The notes: a model not told the origin generated them from the sequence alone. Positions 53,208 to 61,631 are shown, counted from the first letter of the stretch. The stretch: DNA of 64,000 nucleotides from an uncultured delta proteobacterium (GCA_963814585.1 CAWFDF010000009.1:32001-96000); one strand, 5' to 3'. Numbers and translations: made by a program.

Positions 53208-54490
53208 GGTCCAGACCGGCTACATCGGTAACGGGCAGACCGGAGACATGGGTAACAGTCTCGGCCCATGCCCTGGACCCAGACCGACCCGATGAGCGAG
53301 CGACTTCGATTCGTGATGGCGCAGCGCAAGCGCAGGTCCACGTTCAGCAGCCTCTGCGCTGCGTTCGGCGTGGCACCGAAGACGGGCTACAAGTGGTTGC
53401 ACCAGTTCGAGGCGTCCGGTGTCGCTGGGCTGCAGGACCGCTCCCGCCGGCCCAAGGGCAACAGCCGAAGCATCTCCGCGACCATGGGCGAGCGCCTGGT
53501 GGAGCTGCGTGGCTTCCATCCCACCTGGGGTCCCAAGAAGCTCGTCGCGTGGCTCGAGGCCAACGAGCGCTGGTGGGATGTGCCGGCTGCGAGCACGGTG
53601 GGCGAACTGCTGAAGCGGCGTGGCCTGGTGAACTCGCGCAAGCGCCAGCGGCATCAGCAACCTCGCACCGATCCGCTGCGCCACGCGGACAAGCCCAACG
53701 CCGTCTGGGCAATGGACTTCAAAGGGTGGTTCCGGCTTGGCGACGGCAGTCGCTGCGATCCACTGACCATCACCGACGCGTTCAGCCGCTACCTCATCTG
53801 CTGCAAGGCCGGGGCGTTGGTGGGCGATGAGGTCTCCAGGGACGTCTGGTGGGCGCTGGTACGAGCATTCCGCGAGTACGGGATACCAACCGCCATCCGC
53901 GTCGACAACGGTCAGCCTTGGGTGGCCCCCAAGGGAAGCCTCGGCCTCACCCAGCTCGCGGTGAAGATCCTGAAGGCCGACATCGCGCTCGAGCGCATCC
54001 GGCCTGCCAAGCCGCAAGACAACGGACGGCACGAGAGATTCCACCTGACGTTGAAGCAGGAGACGGCACAGCCTCCCTCCGAGACGATGCGCGCGCAGCA
54101 GGATCGCTTCGACCTCTTCCAGCGCGAGTACAACCAGGAGCGCCCGCACGAAGCCCTGCAGCAGCGTCCACCAGGTCAGGTTTACGTCGGCTCGCGACGA
54201 GCATTCCCGAGCCGCCTCCCCGAGCCTGAATACCCGAACTGGTACTCCACCGTTGCTCTCAACCCTGGAGGCCTGATGCGACTTGGAGGCACGACCTACT
54301 TCATCAGCACCGCGCTCGAAGGCGAGAGAGTCGGCTTCGTCGAAGTCGAGGAGGGATGCTTTGAGCTCTACTTCTGCAAGATGCTCCTCGGCCGCATCCA
54401 CGTCGCACACCCTGAACTTGGCTTCATCGCCGCCTGAGGACTGTTACCGATGTCTCCGGTCTGGTCGTTACCCATGTTTCCGGTTGCACC
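53208..54490 (+). mobile_element. IS481-family insertion sequence
   Basis: Two about 21-nt repeats at each end in inverted orientation (53212-53232, 53236-53256; 54443-54463, 54467-54490) flank a transposase; lower GC than the host. Confidence 0.88.
53268..54437 (+). CDS. IS481-family DDE transposase
   Basis: MPW start, HTH (LCAAFGVAPKTGYKW), WGPKKL, WAMDFKG, IRVDNG, NGRHERFH, YNQERPHEAL. Confidence 0.93.
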   Translation: MPWTQTDPMSERLRFVMAQRKRRSTFSSLCAAFGVAPKTGYKWLHQFEASGVAGLQDRSRRPKGNSRSISATMGERLVELRGFHPTWGPKKLVAWLEANERWWDVPAASTVGELLKRRGLVNSRKRQRHQQPRTDPLRHADKPNAVWAMDFKGWFRLGDGSRCDPLTITDAFSRYLICCKAGALVGDEVSRDVWWALVRAFREYGIPTAIRVDNGQPWVAPKGSLGLTQLAVKILKADIALERIRPAKPQDNGRHERFHLTLKQETAQPPSETMRAQQDRFDLFQREYNQERPHEALQQRPPGQVYVGSRRAFPSRLPEPEYPNWYSTVALNPGGLMRLGGTTYFISTALEGERVGFVEVEEGCFELYFCKMLLGRIHVAHPELGFIAA

Positions 54491-54838: not shown

Positions 54839-55273
54839 CTGGCCGAGCTCAAGACCAAGGTCCGCACCGCCAGCGCCAGCGCCTACCTGGCGGCCCTCCC
54901 CGACCCGCGCCGCCGCAAGGACGCAAGGACCGTCGCCGCGCTGATGCGCCGGCTCACCGGCAGCCCGGCCAGGCGCTGGGGGCCGAGCATCATCGGCTTC
55001 GGCCAGGTCCGGCTCCGCTACGCCAGCGGGCGCGAGCTCGACTGGTTCCTGGTCGGCTTCGCGCCGCGCCGGCCGGCCATGGTGCTCTACCTCGGCCTCG
55101 GCGACCTGCTCACCGCGGCGGCCTTGAAGAAGCTCGGCCCCCACCAGCGCGGCCCCAATGCCAACTCGGGCTGCCTCTACCTGAAGACGCTCGAGGGGGT
55201 CGAACTCAAGGTGCTCGAGGGGCTGGTGCGCACCGCCATCGAGCGGGTGCGCGCCAGGGCCGTCAAAGGCTGA
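54839..55273 (+). CDS. DUF1801-domain protein, apparent CTG start
   Basis: (M)AELKTK...WGPSIIGFG...YASGRELDW...GFAPR...GCLYLKTL; GAGGAG RBS 6 nt before CTG. Confidence 0.8.
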   Translation: MAELKTKVRTASASAYLAALPDPRRRKDARTVAALMRRLTGSPARRWGPSIIGFGQVRLRYASGRELDWFLVGFAPRRPAMVLYLGLGDLLTAAALKKLGPHQRGPNANSGCLYLKTLEGVELKVLEGLVRTAIERVRARAVKG

Positions 55274-55897
55274 GCCTCCCGCACGCCGCCCTCACCGCCT
55301 CGACCGCCGTCCCCACCGCCGCCGCAACGGCCGGCGTGAGCCCCTCGCCGACGAGATCCATCACCTCCGCCTCCACCAGCACCAGCTCGATCCGCCCCGG
55401 CACCGGCGCCCCGGAGGCCCGCGCCAGCGCCAGGGCCGACGGCAGCCCGACGGCGTGCGGCGACGGGCCGGCCGGCGTGTGGAGCGCCTCGAGCGGCAGG
55501 GCGTGGACGGTGCCGGGCGGGTGCTGGCCGGTCTGGATGGCGTCCACCACCACCACCCGGTCGAACCCCTCCATGTCGTCGAGCAGGTAGAGCCCGGCCC
55601 GCGCACTCACCTTCACGGCCGCCCCCGGCGGCGGCGCCGCCTCGAGCACCCTCGCCACGTGGAGCGCCACCGCGTCGTCGCGGCGCAGCGGGTTGCCGAG
55701 GCAGAGGACCAGCAGTGCGTCGCTCGCGTCCTGCGCGATCGGCCGCGTGGGCCGGGGGTGAGCCGGCTGCCGGCGGAGCGGGTGCGGCGGAGCGGGTGCG
55801 GTGGAGCGGATGCCGGGGAGCGGGCGCCGAGGGCGGGTGCAGTAGGGCGTGAGGTCGGCGCGGTGCCGGTGGGCGCAGGTGCCACCGGGCGCCTCAC
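55263..55897 (-). CDS. Hydrogenase maturation protease; start/frameshift uncertain
   Basis: LCLGNPLRRDDAVA, VVVVDAI, SPHAVG; the likely GTG start at 55897 is out of frame with the core. Confidence 0.8.
55760..55842. repeat. About 14-nt tandem repeat, 5-6 degenerate copies
   Basis: - strand units gcgcccgctccccg / gcatccgctccacc / gcacccgctccgcc / gcacccgctccgcc. Confidence 0.7.
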
Positions 55898-57379
55898 GGC
55901 TGCTCCTCGGGCACCCGCTGCCGCAGCACCTCGCGCACGTCGCCGCGGCGCGTCCTTCACCGTCACCACCAGCGGGAGCTCCCCCGGCAGCGAGTGCGAG
56001 GCGCAGGCGTTGCACGGGTCGTAGGCGCGGAAGGCCATCTCCAGCTGGTTGAGCAGGCCGTCGTTCACCACGCCGTCGCGGATCAGGCCGCGCGCCGCCT
56101 TGCGGACCGAGACCTGGACCGGCGCGGCGTTGTGCTGCGAGGCCACCACCAGGTTGACCGCGGTGAGCAGGCCGTCGGCCCCGGCCCGGTAGTGGTGGAT
56201 GAGCGTGCCGCGCGGCGCCTCGACCACCCCCACCCCCTCGGCCGGGCCGGTCAGCGGCCTCGGCACGGTGCGGACGTCGCGCGACGCCAGCAGCGGGTCG
56301 TCGACCGCCGCCGCGACGCGCTCGGCCGCCTGCAGCGCCTCCACCAGGCGCGCCCAGTGGAAGGCCAGGGTCTGGTGGGCCGGCCAGCCCAGCGCCTCGA
56401 AGAGCCGCTGCCGCTCGGCCTCGGCCAGCGGCGTGGCCATGGCGGTGGCCACGTTGAGCCGGGCCAGCGGCCCGACCCGGTAGAGGCCGCTCAGGTCACC
56501 TTCGGTGAAGCCGGTCCAGCCCTTCGACTTGAGGAAGGTGAACTTGGCGTAGGTCCAGGGCTCGACCCGCTCGGCCAGGTGCTCGAGGTAGTCGCGGGGG
56601 GCGAAGCGCAGCTGCTCGGCCCCGGCGGTGTCCACCACCCGCAGCGTGCCGTCGAGGAAGGTGAGCCGGCCGCCCTGGTCCACCATCCCCAGCGAGTGGG
56701 TGCGCAGGCGGTAGACCTCGCTGCCGATGGCGGCGAGGTACTCGCGCTGCCCCAGCACCGCCGCGCGGAAGGACTCGAGGGTGTCGACCGAGAACTGCAC
56801 CAGCCGGGGCGCCGCCTCGCGCAGCTGCGCCAGCGCCTCGGCCGGCATGGGGCGGGAGCAGCCCCCGGGGAGGGCGAAGACCGGGTGGACGGTCCGGCCG
56901 CTGATGGCCGCCATCAGGTCGCGGGCCTCCTTGCGGACCGAGAGGATGCGCCCTCCCAGCGAGGCGCCGACCCGCGCCAGCACGCCGAGGATGTTGCGCA
57001 GCGGCGCCGGCGCCTGGGGGCCGACCACGAAGTCGGGCCCGCCCATGTACCAGTAGTGGAGGAGGTGGTCCTCGAAGATGAAGAGGTCGTAGTAGAGCCG
57101 CTGCAGCGCCAGCGCCGCCGGTGGCGGCGTCACCCCGTAGAGGGCGTCGAGCGCCCGCACCGAGGCCAGGTGGTGGGCGGCGGGGCAGACCCCGCAGACG
57201 TGGGCGGTGAGCTGGGGCATCTCCTCGGCCGGGCGCCCCACGCAGAACCGCTCGAAGCCGCGCAGCTCCGGGATCTGCAGGAAGGCGTGCTGGGCGTTCC
57301 CCTGCTCGTCGAGCAGGATCTCCACCTTGCCGTGCCCCTCCAGCCGGGTGATGGGGTCGATGGTGATCCGGCGCGTCAT
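55894..57379 (-). CDS. mvhA: [NiFe] hydrogenase large subunit, group 3c (MvhA-like); apparent frameshift near 55948 in the C-terminal tail
   Basis: IDPITRLEGHGK, ELRGFE, HVCGVCPAAH, YRVGPLARLN, EAPRGTLIHHY, RAYDPCNACASH. Confidence 0.9.
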
Positions 57380-58842
57380 GGCGGTCCCTCCGGCAGGCGG
57401 CGCGGCAGCAGCGCCGCGGCCAGGCCGTAGCGCCAGAAGGTGCCGGCCGGGTCGGGGACGCTCGTCGCCAGCGCCCGCTGGGTGGCCTCGTCGCCCGCGA
57501 AGAGCGAGGCGAAGGCCGAGAGCATGGCGGCGCCGCCGTCGACGACCCCGTCGAGCGGCCCGAAGCAGCCCCGGCAGGGCATGTTGGCCTCGACGCAGCC
57601 GGGCTGGCAGCCTTGCCGGGTGGCCGGCCCGTGGCAGATCAGCCCCTGGGCCAGGAAGCAGGTGGCCTCGTCGGGCTGGGTGGTGGCGAGGCGTGCCAGC
57701 GCGGTGAGCTGCAGCCGCTCCGGGCGGGAGCCGTTGCGCGGGCAGGCGTCGCAGAGCGAGGCGTTGGGCGACAGCACCGCGCCCGGCGGCGGGAGGTCCG
57801 CGCCGGCCAGCAGGCGCTCGATGGCGGCGGCCAGGACGGGGGGCGAAGGGGGGCAGCCGGGGATGACGAAGTCGACGGGCACCGCCGCGCCGAGCGGGAT
57901 GGTCCGGCTGAGCAGGGCCGGCAGGGTCAGGTCGTGGCCGGCGGCGGTGACGGGACGGCCGGGCAGCACCTGCTCGGGGTTGGAGACCGAGGGCTGGTCC
58001 CGGTAGGCGGTGACCAGCAGCTCCTCCGGCTCGGAGAGGTTGCCGAGGCCGACCACGCCGCCGAGGTGGGCGCAGGCGCCGAACGCCACCACGGTCCGCG
58101 CCTTGCGGCGCAGCAGCACCGCCCAGTGGTCCTGCTCGTCGAGCCGGATGGCGCCGTTCACGAAGGCCACGTCGATGTGGCCGTCCGGCAGGGCCTCGAC
58201 GTCGGCCCGCTTGGCGTCGATGGCCACCGGCCAGAGCACGATCTCGACGCGTCCGGCCAGCTCGGCGAAGGCCCCGCCCAGGTCCACCACCGCCTCCTCG
58301 CAGCCGCCGCAGGAGGCGTTCCAGTAGAAGGCCACCCGCGGCTTGCCGGGCGCGCGGGGCGCGGCCGGCGCCTCCTCCAGCTGGTGCAGGCGGGCCCGGG
58401 TGGCGCGCACCGCGTCGTCGACCGAGTCGAGCGCGCGCCGCTGGTAGTCGAGCGGCCCGAGCGCCTCGAGCTCGGCGGTCATCCGCGTCGCCACCTCGGC
58501 GAAGCGCGGCCCCTCGGCGGCCCCCACCCACTCGACGCGCAGGCGCTGGCGGGGGATGTGGGCCTGCTCGAGGGCGCGGCCGAGCAGCGTCAGCCTGGCC
58601 GCCGCCCGCAGGTTGCCGTCGACGTGGTGGCAGTCGCCGGGGTGGCAGCCGCCCACCAGCACGCCGTCGGCCCCCTCGCGGAAGGCCTGCAGCACCATGG
58701 CCGGCTCGACGCGGCCGCTGCAGGGCACGCGCACCGGGAGCAGGGTCTGCGGGTAGTCGTGGTGCGAGCTCCCGGCCTTGTCGGCGGCGGCGTAGGCGCA
58801 CCACTCGCAGAGGAAGGCGACGATGCGGGGGGCGCGGGTCAC
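57376..58842 (-). CDS. mvhD-mvhG: Fused MvhD ([2Fe-2S]) - MvhG (hydrogenase small subunit)
   Basis: FLCEWCAYAAAD, RVPCSGR, GCHPGDCH, then in frame ASCGGCE, AFGACA, IPGCPP, CDACP, CFLAQGLICHGPATRQGC, PCRGCFG. Confidence 0.88.
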   Translation of the reverse strand: MTRAPRIVAFLCEWCAYAAADKAGSSHHDYPQTLLPVRVPCSGRVEPAMVLQAFREGADGVLVGGCHPGDCHHVDGNLRAAARLTLLGRALEQAHIPRQRLRVEWVGAAEGPRFAEVATRMTAELEALGPLDYQRRALDSVDDAVRATRARLHQLEEAPAAPRAPGKPRVAFYWNASCGGCEEAVVDLGGAFAELAGRVEIVLWPVAIDAKRADVEALPDGHIDVAFVNGAIRLDEQDHWAVLLRRKARTVVAFGACAHLGGVVGLGNLSEPEELLVTAYRDQPSVSNPEQVLPGRPVTAAGHDLTLPALLSRTIPLGAAVPVDFVIPGCPPSPPVLAAAIERLLAGADLPPPGAVLSPNASLCDACPRNGSRPERLQLTALARLATTQPDEATCFLAQGLICHGPATRQGCQPGCVEANMPCRGCFGPLDGVVDGGAAMLSAFASLFAGDEATQRALATSVPDPAGTFWRYGLAAALLPRRLPEGPP

Positions 58843-60806
58843 GTCGCCGCCCCGGCCCGGGCGCCGGCCAGCAGCGCCGAGATCTCCGCGGTCAGCTGGG
58901 CCCGGGTGGAGTGGGGCGCGGCCGCCGCGCCGGTGGGGCAGGCGGCGGCGCACCCGCCGCAGGCGTGGCAGTAGGCGGCCTCGACCGTGGCCTTGTGGGT
59001 GGCCGGATCGCGGACCACGGCGTGGTAGGGGCAGGCGGCGGTGCAGGTCCCGCAGCCGCCGCAGAGGACCGGGTCGATCTCGGCGGCCAGCGCCGTCAGC
59101 TCGCGCCGCTCGCCCGGCACCAGCGTGGCCAGCACGCGCCCCGCGGCGGCGGCGCCGTCCCGGATGGACTCGCGGATGGAGCGCGGGCCGGCGGCGGCGC
59201 CGGCGACGAACACCCCCGCCACCCGCGTGGCCGTCGGCTCGAACGGGTTGGCCGACCCCTCGGCCAGGAAGCCGCGCGGGTCGCGGTCCAGCCGCAGCAG
59301 CGCCGCCAGCGCCTCGGCTCCCTCCGCCGGCGTCGAGGCGGCGTGGAGGACCACCAGGTCGAAGGCCCGCGACGTCTCCAGCGGCCCGAGCGCGAGCCGG
59401 ACCGAGACCGCCTCGCCGGCCGGAGCCAGCCCGCCCGGCCGCAGCTCCTCGTCGAGCAGGAGGACGCCCTCCCCGGCCGCGGCCAGGGCCTCGGCGGCGA
59501 GCCCGGGCGTGCGCCCCAGGCCGCCCGCCACCGCCACCGCCAGCCCGGGCCAGCGCCGCCGCAGCCCGCGCGCCAGCTTGAGCAGCTCGCGGGACGGCAG
59601 CGCGCCGTCGCGGTCGCCGGCCGTCGAGGCCAGCAGCACCGAGCTCGGCTCCGGCCGGCCGGCCAGGGTGAGCCGGCCGCCGGTGGGGCCGCCCGGGTGG
59701 AGCAGGCGCTCCAGCTGCCAGGTGGAGATGACGCCGGGAGGACCGGCCACCTCGCCGGGGCGGAACCCGGTCGCCAGCACCAGGGCGCCGGCGGTGAGCC
59801 TTCGCTCCTCGGGCCTGGCGTCGAGCCGGATGGCGTCGAAGCCGCAGGCCGCCAGGCAGGCGTCGCAGCTGCCGTCGCGGTGGTGCAGGCAGGCCGCCGC
59901 GTCGAGCACGGCCAGGTGGGGCAGCGAGCCGGCGTAGGCGGCGCCGATGGCCCGCCGGGACCCGAGGCCGGCCGCCCACGGGTCCGGCACCTCGACCGGG
60001 CAGCGCAGGCTGCACTCGCCGCAGCCGATGCACCGCTGCGGGTCGACGAACCTGGGGGCCAGCGCCGCCGTCACCTCGAAGGCGCCGGGCGTGCCGCGCA
60101 CCCGCGTCACCGTGGCGCCGGTGAGCAGCTCGATCCGATCGTGGTGGAGCACCTCGTCGAGCGCCGGCTCCATGAAGCAGGAGGCGCAGACGTGGTCGGG
60201 GAAGATCTCGTCGAGCTGCGCGGCCAGCCCGCCCAGCGCCGGCGACCGCTCCACCAGCAGCACCCGGCGGTCCTTCCTCGCCAGCGTCAGCGCCGCCGCC
60301 ACGCCGGCCGCGCCGCCGCCCACCACCACCACGTCGGCGACCACGTCGACCTCGCGCCGCGCCCGGGGCTGGTGGCGGGCCACGCGGGCCAGCCCGGCCC
60401 GCACCAGCCGCTCGGCGCGCGCCGTGGCCGCCTCGGCCGCGCCGCCGATCCACTCCACCTGCTCGCGCAGGTTGACCAGCTGCAGGAGGTACGGGTTTCG
60501 CCCGGCCCGGGCCATCACGGCGCGGAAGGTGAGCTCGTGCTCGCGCGGGGAGCAGGCGGCGACCACCAGCCGGTCGAGCCGCTCCCGCCGAAGCCAGTCG
60601 GCCAGCCAGTCCTGGCCCTCCGCCGAGCAGAGGATCGGCTGGGTGGTCACCGCCGCCGCCTCGGGCCAGTGGGCCGCCGCCTCGAGCGGGCCGAGCTCGA
60701 TCAGGTTGAAGAGGTTGGGGCCGCAGCGGCAGAGGACCAGGCCGATCCGGCCGGTCTCCGGTTCGGGCGGGGCCGCGGCGGGTCCGGGCGGTGGCGGCGC
60801 GGTCAC
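58839..60806 (-). CDS. hdrA: Heterodisulfide reductase subunit A-like flavoprotein (divergent)
   Basis: LCRCG, VAACSPREHE, NLREQ, VGGGAAG, inserted ferredoxin CIGCGECSLRCP, ATGF, ERLL..GGPTGG, DLVVL, GVFVAG, C-terminal 2x CxxCxxCxxxCP. Confidence 0.88.
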   Translation of the reverse strand: MTAPPPPGPAAAPPEPETGRIGLVLCRCGPNLFNLIELGPLEAAAHWPEAAAVTTQPILCSAEGQDWLADWLRRERLDRLVVAACSPREHELTFRAVMARAGRNPYLLQLVNLREQVEWIGGAAEAATARAERLVRAGLARVARHQPRARREVDVVADVVVVGGGAAGVAAALTLARKDRRVLLVERSPALGGLAAQLDEIFPDHVCASCFMEPALDEVLHHDRIELLTGATVTRVRGTPGAFEVTAALAPRFVDPQRCIGCGECSLRCPVEVPDPWAAGLGSRRAIGAAYAGSLPHLAVLDAAACLHHRDGSCDACLAACGFDAIRLDARPEERRLTAGALVLATGFRPGEVAGPPGVISTWQLERLLHPGGPTGGRLTLAGRPEPSSVLLASTAGDRDGALPSRELLKLARGLRRRWPGLAVAVAGGLGRTPGLAAEALAAAGEGVLLLDEELRPGGLAPAGEAVSVRLALGPLETSRAFDLVVLHAASTPAEGAEALAALLRLDRDPRGFLAEGSANPFEPTATRVAGVFVAGAAAGPRSIRESIRDGAAAAGRVLATLVPGERRELTALAAEIDPVLCGGCGTCTAACPYHAVVRDPATHKATVEAAYCHACGGCAAACPTGAAAAPHSTRAQLTAEISALLAGARAGAAT

Positions 60807-60810
60807 ACCA

Positions 60811-61032
60811 TCAGTACTGGATGAGGATGACGGTCCTGGCGCCGTCGGCGCGGACGGCCAGCATGGTCCTGCGGCGGCGCTCGCAGAAGGTCCGGATGTC
60901 CTTCTCGAAGGTGGGGCAGTCCCCGGTGATCTCGACCACGGTGCCGGACCGGGTCTCGGCAGTCTCCACGGCGAGCTTCAGGACCGGCTGGGGGCAGCGC
61001 ATGCCGGTGCAGTCGATCTTCAGCACGTCCAT
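60811..61032 (-). CDS. tusA: TusA-family sulfur carrier protein (73 aa)
   Basis: IDCTGMRCPQP motif, DCPTFEKDIRTFC. Confidence 0.88.
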   Translation of the reverse strand: MDVLKIDCTGMRCPQPVLKLAVETAETRSGTVVEITGDCPTFEKDIRTFCERRRRTMLAVRADGARTVILIQY

Positions 61033-61097
61033 GGCCAAGGTGGTTCGCCTCCTGGAGGTCTGGGAGGCCCGGGGGGAGGCGACCCACACCAGGCCTG

Positions 61098-61127
61098 ACC
61101 TTACCGGAGCGGATCCGGGCGAGTCAA
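61098..61127 (-). promoter_or_regulatory. Sigma70-type promoter of the tusA-hdrA-mvh operon
   Basis: TTGACT (61127-61122)-N18-TAAGGT (61103-61098), T-tract upstream. Confidence 0.7.
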
Positions 61128-61172: not shown

Positions 61173-61631
61173 TCAGTCCGCCACGTCCTCGGCCAGGATG
61201 AGCCGGTAGATCTCCTCGGACGAGGGCGCCGCCAGGATGGCCTCCCGGAAGGCGGCCACCCGGAAGATCCGGCTCACACGGGAGAGCGCCTTGAGGTGCG
61301 CCCCGGCGGAGTTCTCCGGCGCGAAGAGGGCGAAGAAGATCCGGGCCGGCTTGCCGTCGGCGGCCCGGTACTCGATCCCCTCCCGCGAGCGGCCCACGGT
61401 GGCCACCAGCGCCGGCAGCCCGGGCCACTTGCCGTGCGGGATGGCGACGCCGTCCCCGACGCCGGTCGACCCGAGCTTCTCGCGGTCGAGCAGCACCTGG
61501 ACCAGGCGCGCGGCGTCCAGCCCGTTGACCTGCGCCACCGGCCGGCACAGCTCGGCCAGCACCTCGGCGGCGGTGCGGCCCTGCAAGTCGGCCAGCACCG
61601 CCTGCGGCTGGAGGAAGTCCTGGATCTTCAC
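61173..61631 (-). CDS. ptsN: PTS EIIA(Ntr)
   Basis: REKLGSTGVGDGVAIPHGK, HLKALSRVSR; downstream of rpoN-hpf. Confidence 0.9.
   Translation of the reverse strand: MKIQDFLQPQAVLADLQGRTAAEVLAELCRPVAQVNGLDAARLVQVLLDREKLGSTGVGDGVAIPHGKWPGLPALVATVGRSREGIEYRAADGKPARIFFALFAPENSAGAHLKALSRVSRIFRVAAFREAILAAPSSEEIYRLILAEDVAD

Follow-up and report, generated by a model that had tools for sequence, protein, structure and literature searches.

The window analysed here, a stretch of 64,000 nucleotides from an uncultured delta proteobacterium (GCA_963814585.1 CAWFDF010000009.1:32001-96000), belongs to a genome of the Anaeromyxobacteraceae that is 91.7% complete and carries an operon of five genes encoding a TusA-family protein, HdrA, a fused MvhD-MvhG protein, the [NiFe] hydrogenase large subunit MvhA and a hydrogenase maturation protease. 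With a probability of roughly 40%, we interpret this operon as the Anaeromyxobacteraceae member of a widespread HdrA-Mvh-TusA module that would work independently of HdrB and HdrC (HdrBC) and feed signalling proteins; its purpose may be to detect H2 or the redox state and not to supply energy. A signalling role of the module at large is probable, judging from the genes that accompany it, and is least secure in the window's own family. The operon appears to be built from the parts of the methanogen MvhAGD-HdrABC complex, yet not to be a bifurcating member of that type, because it has no HdrBC and its HdrA lacks the motif that we assign to cluster HA4.

Annotations read hdrA together with mvhADG as an energy-conserving, bifurcating heterodisulfide reductase. 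Since the clade described below lacks HdrBC, is able to lose the bifurcation cluster and is tied to signalling in several phyla, many such annotations may be wrong. Two features recognized from the sequences are new here, namely an HdrA without the cluster proximal to flavin adenine dinucleotide (FAD) and a two-cysteine TusA subfamily tied to one HdrA clade. No description of a link between TusA, HdrA, Mvh and signalling was found in the literature searched, although reviews on HdrA modules and on TusA may mention parts, and the module is not described in the available portions of PMC12142623, PMC6019823, PMC11094781, PMC5947623, PMC13490349, PMC9751629 and PMC5165239.

An HdrA-Mvh operon without HdrB and HdrC

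All five genes lie closely coupled on the minus strand in the order tusA, hdrA, mvhD-mvhG, mvhA, protease gene, and both gene calls and Pfam matches agree with the order proposed earlier from the DNA alone (the sequence-only reading). The tight junctions that it described were recovered between tusA and hdrA (a gap of 4 nt), hdrA and mvhD-mvhG (a GTGA overlap) and mvhD-mvhG and mvhA (an ATGA overlap), but not between mvhA and the protease gene, where the GTG at 55897 is out of frame with the protease as assembled. The operon contains neither hdrB nor hdrC, as had been stated, and the HdrB model TIGR03288 has no match in the host genome either (HdrC was not searched genome-wide). The host encodes one HdrA only. 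Its CCG proteins are of five kinds, with best scores as LutA-, GlcF-, GlpC- and TfrB-like proteins, and none scores as HdrB. Two host loci, L021 (G000:C18:14000-24192) and L017 (G000:C9:298000-312000), hold the same genes, a CCG protein included, through duplication or an assembly artefact.

Among 92 genomes of the family, this TusA is present in 43 and an orthologous HdrA in 42, the latter count comprising matches of at least 450 bits and the G014 fragments and leaving out G077 and G084, which have hdrABC loci. The two genes lie within about 300 bp of each other in 40 of the 42 carriers, and the other two (G053 and G088) have contig ends where tusA would lie. In G087 and G104 tusA is placed after hdrA; in G018 HdrA and TusA share one frame of 718 amino acids (aa), which we keep as a weak hint only. 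HdrB was detected in 4 of the 92 genomes and in a single carrier (G068), at a locus with hdrA and mvh genes of its own. Conserved adjacency of tusA and hdrA and the lack of a cognate hdrBC elsewhere (judged by HdrB), both of which the sequence-only reading had offered as tests of itself, are borne out by these counts, and the operon is intact in dozens of genomes of five genera. At one locus of G017 (L154, contig C49, 4709-8102), ptsN, an amidase gene, tusA and the protease gene persist and hdrA-mvhDG-mvhA are gone.

A scan of GTDB genomes confirmed 285 TusA loci, the best 80 of which (the 80 TusA loci referred to below) hold hdrA in 63 cases, mvhA in 59 and hdrB in 1, whereas of 80 control loci found with canonical HdrA, all related to a single query, 75 contain hdrB and none a TusA.

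Related clusters are on record. In sulfate reducers, for example Desulfobacterium autotrophicum, mvh genes are clustered with hdrA without adjacent hdrBC, and their MvhADG-HdrA has been proposed to reduce a disulfide and ferredoxin (PMC2702500); unlike the present case, no TusA or signalling link is described in the available text, and the window's host has no DsrC. In Anaeromyxobacter dehalogenans, a group 3 large subunit beside a fused delta-gamma gene (Adeh_4162/Adeh_4163) was noted in 2008 (PMC2330069) and is very probably this operon, matched by description rather than by sequence; that paper treats the hydrogenase as a second respiratory one, and the word heterodisulfide is absent from its main text.

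HdrA, the hydrogenase subunits and TusA

HdrA matches the methanogen protein (PDB 5odc_A, E 1e-96; structure model against 8rvu_A, template-modelling score 0.75). Compared with methanogen MvhAGD-HdrABC (PDB 5ODC, also 8RVU and 9T1S; PMC13580544, PMC12350162), the fold and domain order of HdrA, its FAD motifs, the Glu and Lys near FAD, the Cys pair and the shuttle and ferredoxin clusters are alike, as are the MvhA, MvhG and MvhD subunits with their nickel and Fe-S ligands. The window system differs in that HdrB and HdrC are absent from the operon, the FAD-proximal cluster motif and the YGYG loop of methanogen HdrA are gone, MvhD is fused to MvhG, TusA is part of the operon and a His precedes the first nickel motif.

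The lost motif, CxGSR...YCSxxCC, is intact in 55 of 56 canonical-type HdrA proteins. The corresponding residues 386-418 are free of Cys in 32 of 32 family rows, whereas 26 of the 29 TusA-linked rows from elsewhere have 4-5, counting only open reading frames (ORFs) aligned over more than 520 residues. The remaining cluster cysteines, the FAD motifs, E366, K410 and C207/C210 are near-invariant. A role in the enzyme is ascribed to the Glu/Lys pair near FAD (E356/K409), and the equivalence of K410 hangs on an alignment across a deletion. We take the lost motif to be that of HA4, by elimination from PMC13580544. A previous assignment to HA3 was abandoned in favour of HA4 on the electron paths given in PMC12350162 and PMC13580544, according to which the high-potential electron of methanogen HdrA exits FAD via HA4 to HdrB and the low-potential electron travels through HA3, HA5 and HA6. 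Loss of the cluster that leads to HdrBC fits an HdrBC-free design.

The motif is likewise gone in L168, L171 and L175, outside the family. A single clade of all motif-less rows was rejected (approximately unbiased test, 20 rows, segment omitted from the alignment, p=0.0003); the motif has been lost twice, once in a lineage with TusA-RsbR. Since the losses affect two separate lineages, the exit to HdrBC appears dispensable in the TusA-linked clade. A single branch with support 100 separates the TusA-linked HdrAs, which come from at least five phyla (Myxococcota, Nitrospirota, Desulfobacterota, Planctomycetota and WOR-3), from the remaining HdrAs (31 versus 10 rows, FastTree), and the same split recurs in a larger tree (62 versus 6 rows), both trees being unrooted with a small outgroup. 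The HA4-less HdrA of cultured Anaeromyxobacter offers a natural test case for the role of the Cys pair near the HdrA flavin, which is discussed in section 6 of PMC13580544. Prediction of an HdrA-TusA complex (61- and 59-row alignments) scored 0.01 against a mark of 0.32, but the controls did not fold, so that the score speaks neither for nor against such a complex.

In the hydrogenase, the MvhD part of the fusion contains Cys 12, 15, 41, 66 and 71 and H67/D70, and the best NCBIfam matches of the fused protein, VhuD and VhuG, fall under the cut-off. MvhA possesses both nickel-ligand motifs and finds its best PDB large-subunit matches in group 3 (339 bits to 7t2r_D, 325 to 5xf9_D, 323 to 5odc_F); its best NCBIfam match is VhuA, at 344 against a cut-off of 800, and its assignment to group 3c rests on gene context. 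At residue 60 (window 57200-57202) His replaces the Arg that precedes the first nickel-binding CxxC; every one of the 53 family hits has His at this position, and 22 of the 32 hits from elsewhere have Lys, rough counts from overlapping loci.

As assembled, mvhA shifts frame near 55948, past the last nickel-ligand motif, and extends to 55613 (589 aa), whereas MvhA of relatives ends at 492-514 aa; the start region of the protease is affected as well, and a tandem 14-mer lies at 55774-55801. Both genes are intact in relatives, whose protease measures 138-171 aa. From 208 genes of a same-genus genome, 137 have an orthologue in the host assembly and 21 of these shift frame there, so the breaks in the mvhA tail and the protease start are probably assembly errors. 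Contigs of four public DNA runs did not settle the matter, no listed piece bridging 55774-55960. Elsewhere in the host, a hyp cluster (G000:C3:125000-131043) has broken frames in hypF and hypD and a Hox-type hydrogenase (G000:C10:102093-106908) has a broken large subunit, in both cases probably by assembly error; a group 1 hydrogenase (G000:C12:251435-256309) is intact.

The window TusA has the four Cys reported at the outset (C8, C13, C39 and C50) and scores under the NCBIfam cut-offs for TusA and YedF. Conservation across 94 distinct subfamily sequences is 93 for C13, 94 for C39, 88 for C50 and 58 for C8, and the subfamily has a conserved surface of its own, DCPTFEKD-R. C39 corresponds in position to the second Cys of both YedF and E. 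coli YeeD; in the latter, C13 and C39 are both required in vivo (PMC11073785). In TusA proteins, sulfane sulfur is bound by the Cys of the CPxP motif (PMC11094781). Judged by its sequence, this TusA belongs to a separate subfamily with two cysteines (C13/C39), which accompanies a single HdrA clade in several phyla. The pairwise distances of the two proteins are correlated (Spearman 0.85), as could arise from common descent alone, and mean identity in the family is 0.81 for TusA versus 0.63 for HdrA. A weak search for longer proteins holding this TusA produced 103 candidates, none significant, and the ESM Atlas returned generic TusA and HAMP clusters only. A selenocysteine form, suggested by an in-frame TGA in a copy from G109, was discarded, no intact motif having been recovered.

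Fold family and CPxP cysteine are shared with sHdr-associated TusA, E. coli TusA, YeeD/TsuB and YedF (PMC11094781, PMC11073785). The cysteines C13 and C39 recall YeeE-YeeD thiosulfate uptake, but no YeeE is adjacent and NF041048 has no match. Unlike the sHdr-LbpA system, the operon contains no shdrC1B1A, LbpA, DsrE or rhodanese, and its HdrA is full-length with a weak match to sHdrA 6tjr.

Signalling genes next to tusA

Outside the family there are 67 loci, 56 of which have a called same-strand gene <=600 bp after tusA; at least four of the remaining 11 are gene-caller misses of a chemoreceptor or kinase. The first gene after tusA encodes a signalling protein in 42 of the 56 (37 domain-scanned, 19 assigned by homology), including methyl-accepting chemotaxis proteins (MCPs), kinases, RsbR-like STAS, CheW, receiver, PAS and HD-GYP proteins in about ten architectures; in 8 it encodes a binding protein, preceding a kinase where checked, and in 6 something else. 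One upstream-side gene per locus, taken as control, is a signalling gene in 13 of 52, a rate raised by the location of several modules within che or rsb clusters. Chemoreceptors, CheW and RsbR act as outputs and do not regulate a neighbouring operon.

Many of the MCP, kinase, STAS and HD-GYP proteins that follow tusA share a HAMP-like domain with the conserved motif M/H-E/N-L/F-A-M/L/I-G. In a reverse test centred on G108 and G109, which are close to the seed sequences, 12 of 101 genomes from G108's class and 5 of 151 from G109's phylum contain the domain, and 28 and 7, respectively, contain this TusA. In 17 of the 17 domain-bearing genomes tusA lies about 0.1-0.9 kb upstream of a domain on the same strand, and in four new Desulfobacterota genomes a high-scoring HdrA is encoded no more than 13 kb away. 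The domain is distributed over 4-6 signalling proteins in some genomes, and G109 has six TusA copies, three of them directly before HAMP-like-domain proteins. A DNA-pattern search for the motif gave 21 loci, 14 unrelated and 7 true; tusA is directly upstream in 6 of the 7 true loci, among which two are seed contigs and one is a close relative of a seed. L162-L182 (13 loci, from Alphaproteobacteria, Enterousia and an uncultured proteobacterium) represent an unrelated multi-copy, low-GC gut family that shares the nine-residue motif by chance.

At four loci (L218:5165-6988, L219, L220 and L235) a stand-alone HdrA of 607-609 aa and tusA, without mvh genes, are followed by a binding protein, a kinase and a receiver; the L218 HdrA retains the cluster motif. 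Within the family, extra TusA copies at three loci lie beside a kinase and a sigma-54 regulator, or an EAL protein. A second copy in G051 (C334; L098 / L321) heads a cluster of kinase, sigma-54 regulator and mvhD-flx-hdrA. The Nitrospirota chemoreceptor after tusA (L111:7249-9417 and relatives) combines a zinc-binding CZB domain with two HAMP-like domains. Several HAMP-like signalling proteins (L145:2870-3100, L189:6750-7000, L191, L195, L326 and L333) have an N-terminal Cys-rich domain, CW...CP...CW...C, which has no Pfam match and is a possible metal or redox sensor.

Several observations weigh against a signalling module. One Nitrospirota chemoreceptor makes up about 20 of the 42 signalling neighbours, two rows being duplicates and the loci kin; ten of the 17 domain-bearing genomes are small and look like one lineage; and 16 of the 28 TusA-bearing genomes of G108's class have no HAMP-like domain. 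The window's operon includes no signalling gene, and the HAMP-like domain was not detected in any of the 92 family genomes with a profile that works in G108's class. Several other extra TusA copies of the family adjoin aroB or an aminotransferase gene rather than signalling genes. The FAD-proximal cluster is retained by 26 of the 29 TusA-linked HdrAs outside the family, and the enzyme keeps a maturation protease and the full ferredoxin branch, like metabolic hydrogenases. Finally, in the four genomes inspected among those ten of apparently one lineage, tusA and a kinase gene come after an operon of group 1 hydrogenase, protease and hypC that has no hdrA, so that TusA need not be a substrate of HdrA; three of the four have a second tusA next to an hdrA that stands alone, and genes for a binding protein and a kinase follow.

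Among the [NiFe] rows of HydDB, sensing is given only for groups 2b (kinase-linked) and 2c (diguanylate cyclase-linked), and group 3c is listed only as heterodisulfide-linked and bifurcating, in the available part of PMC5037454. The module resembles 2b and 2c hydrogenases in its tie to kinases or cyclic di-GMP (c-di-GMP) enzymes in relatives of other phyla, though not in the window's family; it differs in that the large subunit belongs to group 3 rather than 2 and that protease, HdrA and TusA stand in between.

Proposed mechanism, alternatives and operon boundaries

In the mechanism that we envisage, MvhA would oxidise H2, and the electrons would take a path over MvhG, the C-terminal clusters of HdrA and MvhD, arriving at FAD and at C207/C210. 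Without the exit via HA4 and HdrBC, they would reach the C13/C39 pair of TusA, as disulfide or persulfide, HdrA serving TusA as thioredoxin reductase serves thioredoxin, with a possible parallel flow to ferredoxin via the low-potential clusters that HdrA has kept. Through its thiol state, TusA would inform its readers (chemoreceptors, kinases, RsbR-like or c-di-GMP proteins) of the H2 supply or of the redox/sulfane-sulfur load; in the window's family the reader would be encoded elsewhere. If TusA is indeed a relay, this would be a new route by which anaerobes sense H2 or redox and a new role for TusA. The core chemical step of the sequence-only reading, H2-fed HdrA reducing TusA, is one that we lean towards accepting, since a signalling and a sulfur-reducing system would share the same chemistry. 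A more ambitious version, put forward with slightly greater reserve than the general one, would make the module an undescribed class of sensory hydrogenase: group 3c-type Mvh with HdrA as H2-dependent reductase of a two-cysteine TusA, a thiol relay that docks on a HAMP-like domain dedicated to input in the chemoreceptors, kinases, stressosome and c-di-GMP proteins of anaerobes. The Anaeromyxobacteraceae would then possess a form stripped of the HdrBC-facing cluster.

The strongest competitor, rather unlikely in our judgement, is a non-bifurcating cytoplasmic H2:ferredoxin oxidoreductase for redox balance, in which HdrA would be a wire from Mvh to ferredoxin, TusA an accessory or regulatory subunit (providing sulfur or metal during maturation, or acting as an on/off switch), and signalling genes elsewhere would regulate or answer to the hydrogenase generally. 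It accommodates the loss of HA4 beside the full retention of input and low-potential clusters, the TusA that follows group 1 hydrogenase, protease and hypC without HdrA, the persistence of tusA and protease after the loss of hdrA-mvh in G017, and the hyp genes elsewhere in the host genome. It does not account for the four loci with hdrA and tusA but no mvhDGA, nor for a TusA that is better conserved than HdrA and duplicated along with signalling genes in G109. To our knowledge, moreover, most hydrogenases mature without TusA.

Somewhat less probable again is an H2-driven reductase of TusA-bound persulfide serving sulfur metabolism, with TusA in place of the heterodisulfide/HdrBC branch and perhaps bifurcation to ferredoxin. 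Such a system would agree with the absence of HdrB from 41 of 42 carriers, the loss of HA4 with E366, K410 and C207/C210 kept, the single HdrA-TusA fusion and the binding of sulfane sulfur by TusA CPxP cysteines (PMC11094781); YeeE-type transporters with rhodaneses on other host contigs mean that a persulfide source in trans exists. The fusion, however, occurs in 1 of 42 genomes, and the nearest complete relative has separate, overlapping genes; none of the 80 TusA loci has a DsrE2-like gene; the host has no DsrC; and among the clustered neighbours of 36 TusA loci no sulfur-transfer or transport family recurs, while signalling genes (chemoreceptors, kinases, RsbR-like and c-di-GMP proteins) do. 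A sulfur-respiring purpose is not upheld by this distribution; the HdrBC-free design of the sequence-only reading fares better, given the lost HdrA cluster and the one HdrA-TusA frame. Two YeeE loci of the host (G000:C16, C3) are an ArsR-rhodanese, rhodanese and YeeE operon (L338:6114-8893) and a cluster of multiheme cytochrome, cytochrome b and YeeE-rhodanese under a sigma-54 activator (L339:4478-10034).

That HdrA instead forms a dispersed HdrABC-like complex with a CCG-domain partner from another locus, such as the membrane Fe-S/CCG protein of 658 aa on G000:C18 (also C9), is improbable: five kinds of CCG protein are available, HdrB-like genes lie elsewhere in 4 of 5 distant carriers tested and the genome is incomplete, but no CCG protein scores as HdrB, their contexts are those of lactate, glycolate and other oxidoreductases, and the cluster that passes electrons to HdrC/B (PMC13580544) has no ligands here. 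Still more improbable is a decaying relic whose HdrA is losing function after partner loss, as the long branch to the family (1.09), the frame breaks at the end of mvhA, at the start of the protease gene and in hypD and further hydrogenase genes and the Arg-to-His change beside the first nickel motif are offset by an operon intact across five genera, near-invariance of every other cluster cysteine and FAD motif in 32 rows, and frame breaks in ordinary genes of the same assembly.

The features of the operon and its surroundings are collected in Table 1. The upstream boundary proposed by the sequence-only reading, ptsN, is common to most Anaeromyxobacteraceae loci (ptsN is present in 33 of the 80 TusA loci); at the downstream boundary the convergent ORF stands, but its DUF1801 label does not, there being no Pfam match at E<=0.01, and the ORF is seen in 1 of the 80 loci. 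A promoter had also been postulated. A sigma-70 consensus scan found no sites, the promoter-like site between ptsN and tusA falling below its threshold, but among nine aligned ptsN-tusA spacers of relatives, six have TTGAC and all nine have TAAG.T. A sigma-54 consensus pattern gave 32 matches against 55 by chance, none upstream of tusA.

Table 1. Positions of the operon, its boundaries and selected HdrA sites in the window
Feature	Position	Strand	Basis
tusA, TusA-family protein, 73 aa	60811..61032	-	PF01206; C13 in CPxP, C39 in DCP, also C8, C50
hdrA, 655 aa	58839..60806	-	N-terminal cluster domain, FAD motifs and two 2x[4Fe-4S] domains kept
Fused mvhD-mvhG, 488 aa	57376..58842	-	PF02662 + PF01058
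mvhA, MvhA-type [NiFe] large subunit	55894..57379	-	PF00374
Hydrogenase maturation protease	55263..55897 (catalytic part 55263-55751)	-	PF01750; TIGR00072 above cut-off
HdrA residues 386-418, site of the lost CxGSR...YCSxxCC motif (presumably HA4)	59553..59651	-	Alignments
HdrA C207/C210, equivalent to the conserved Cys pair near FAD of methanogen HdrA	60177..60188	-	Invariant in 61/61 rows
ptsN (EIIA), end of rpoN-hpf-ptsN block, upstream boundary	61173..61631	-	PF00359
Promoter-like site TTGACT, 18 nt, TAAGGT between ptsN and tusA	61098..61127	-	Conserved in relatives' aligned spacers
Convergent 109-aa ORF, downstream boundary	54944..55273	+	No Pfam or NCBIfam match

The one terminator-like site in the scan is located outside the operon. 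An IS481-family transposase gene (rve, HTH; window 53268-54437, plus strand) with similar ends lies between a signal peptidase gene and the convergent ORF.

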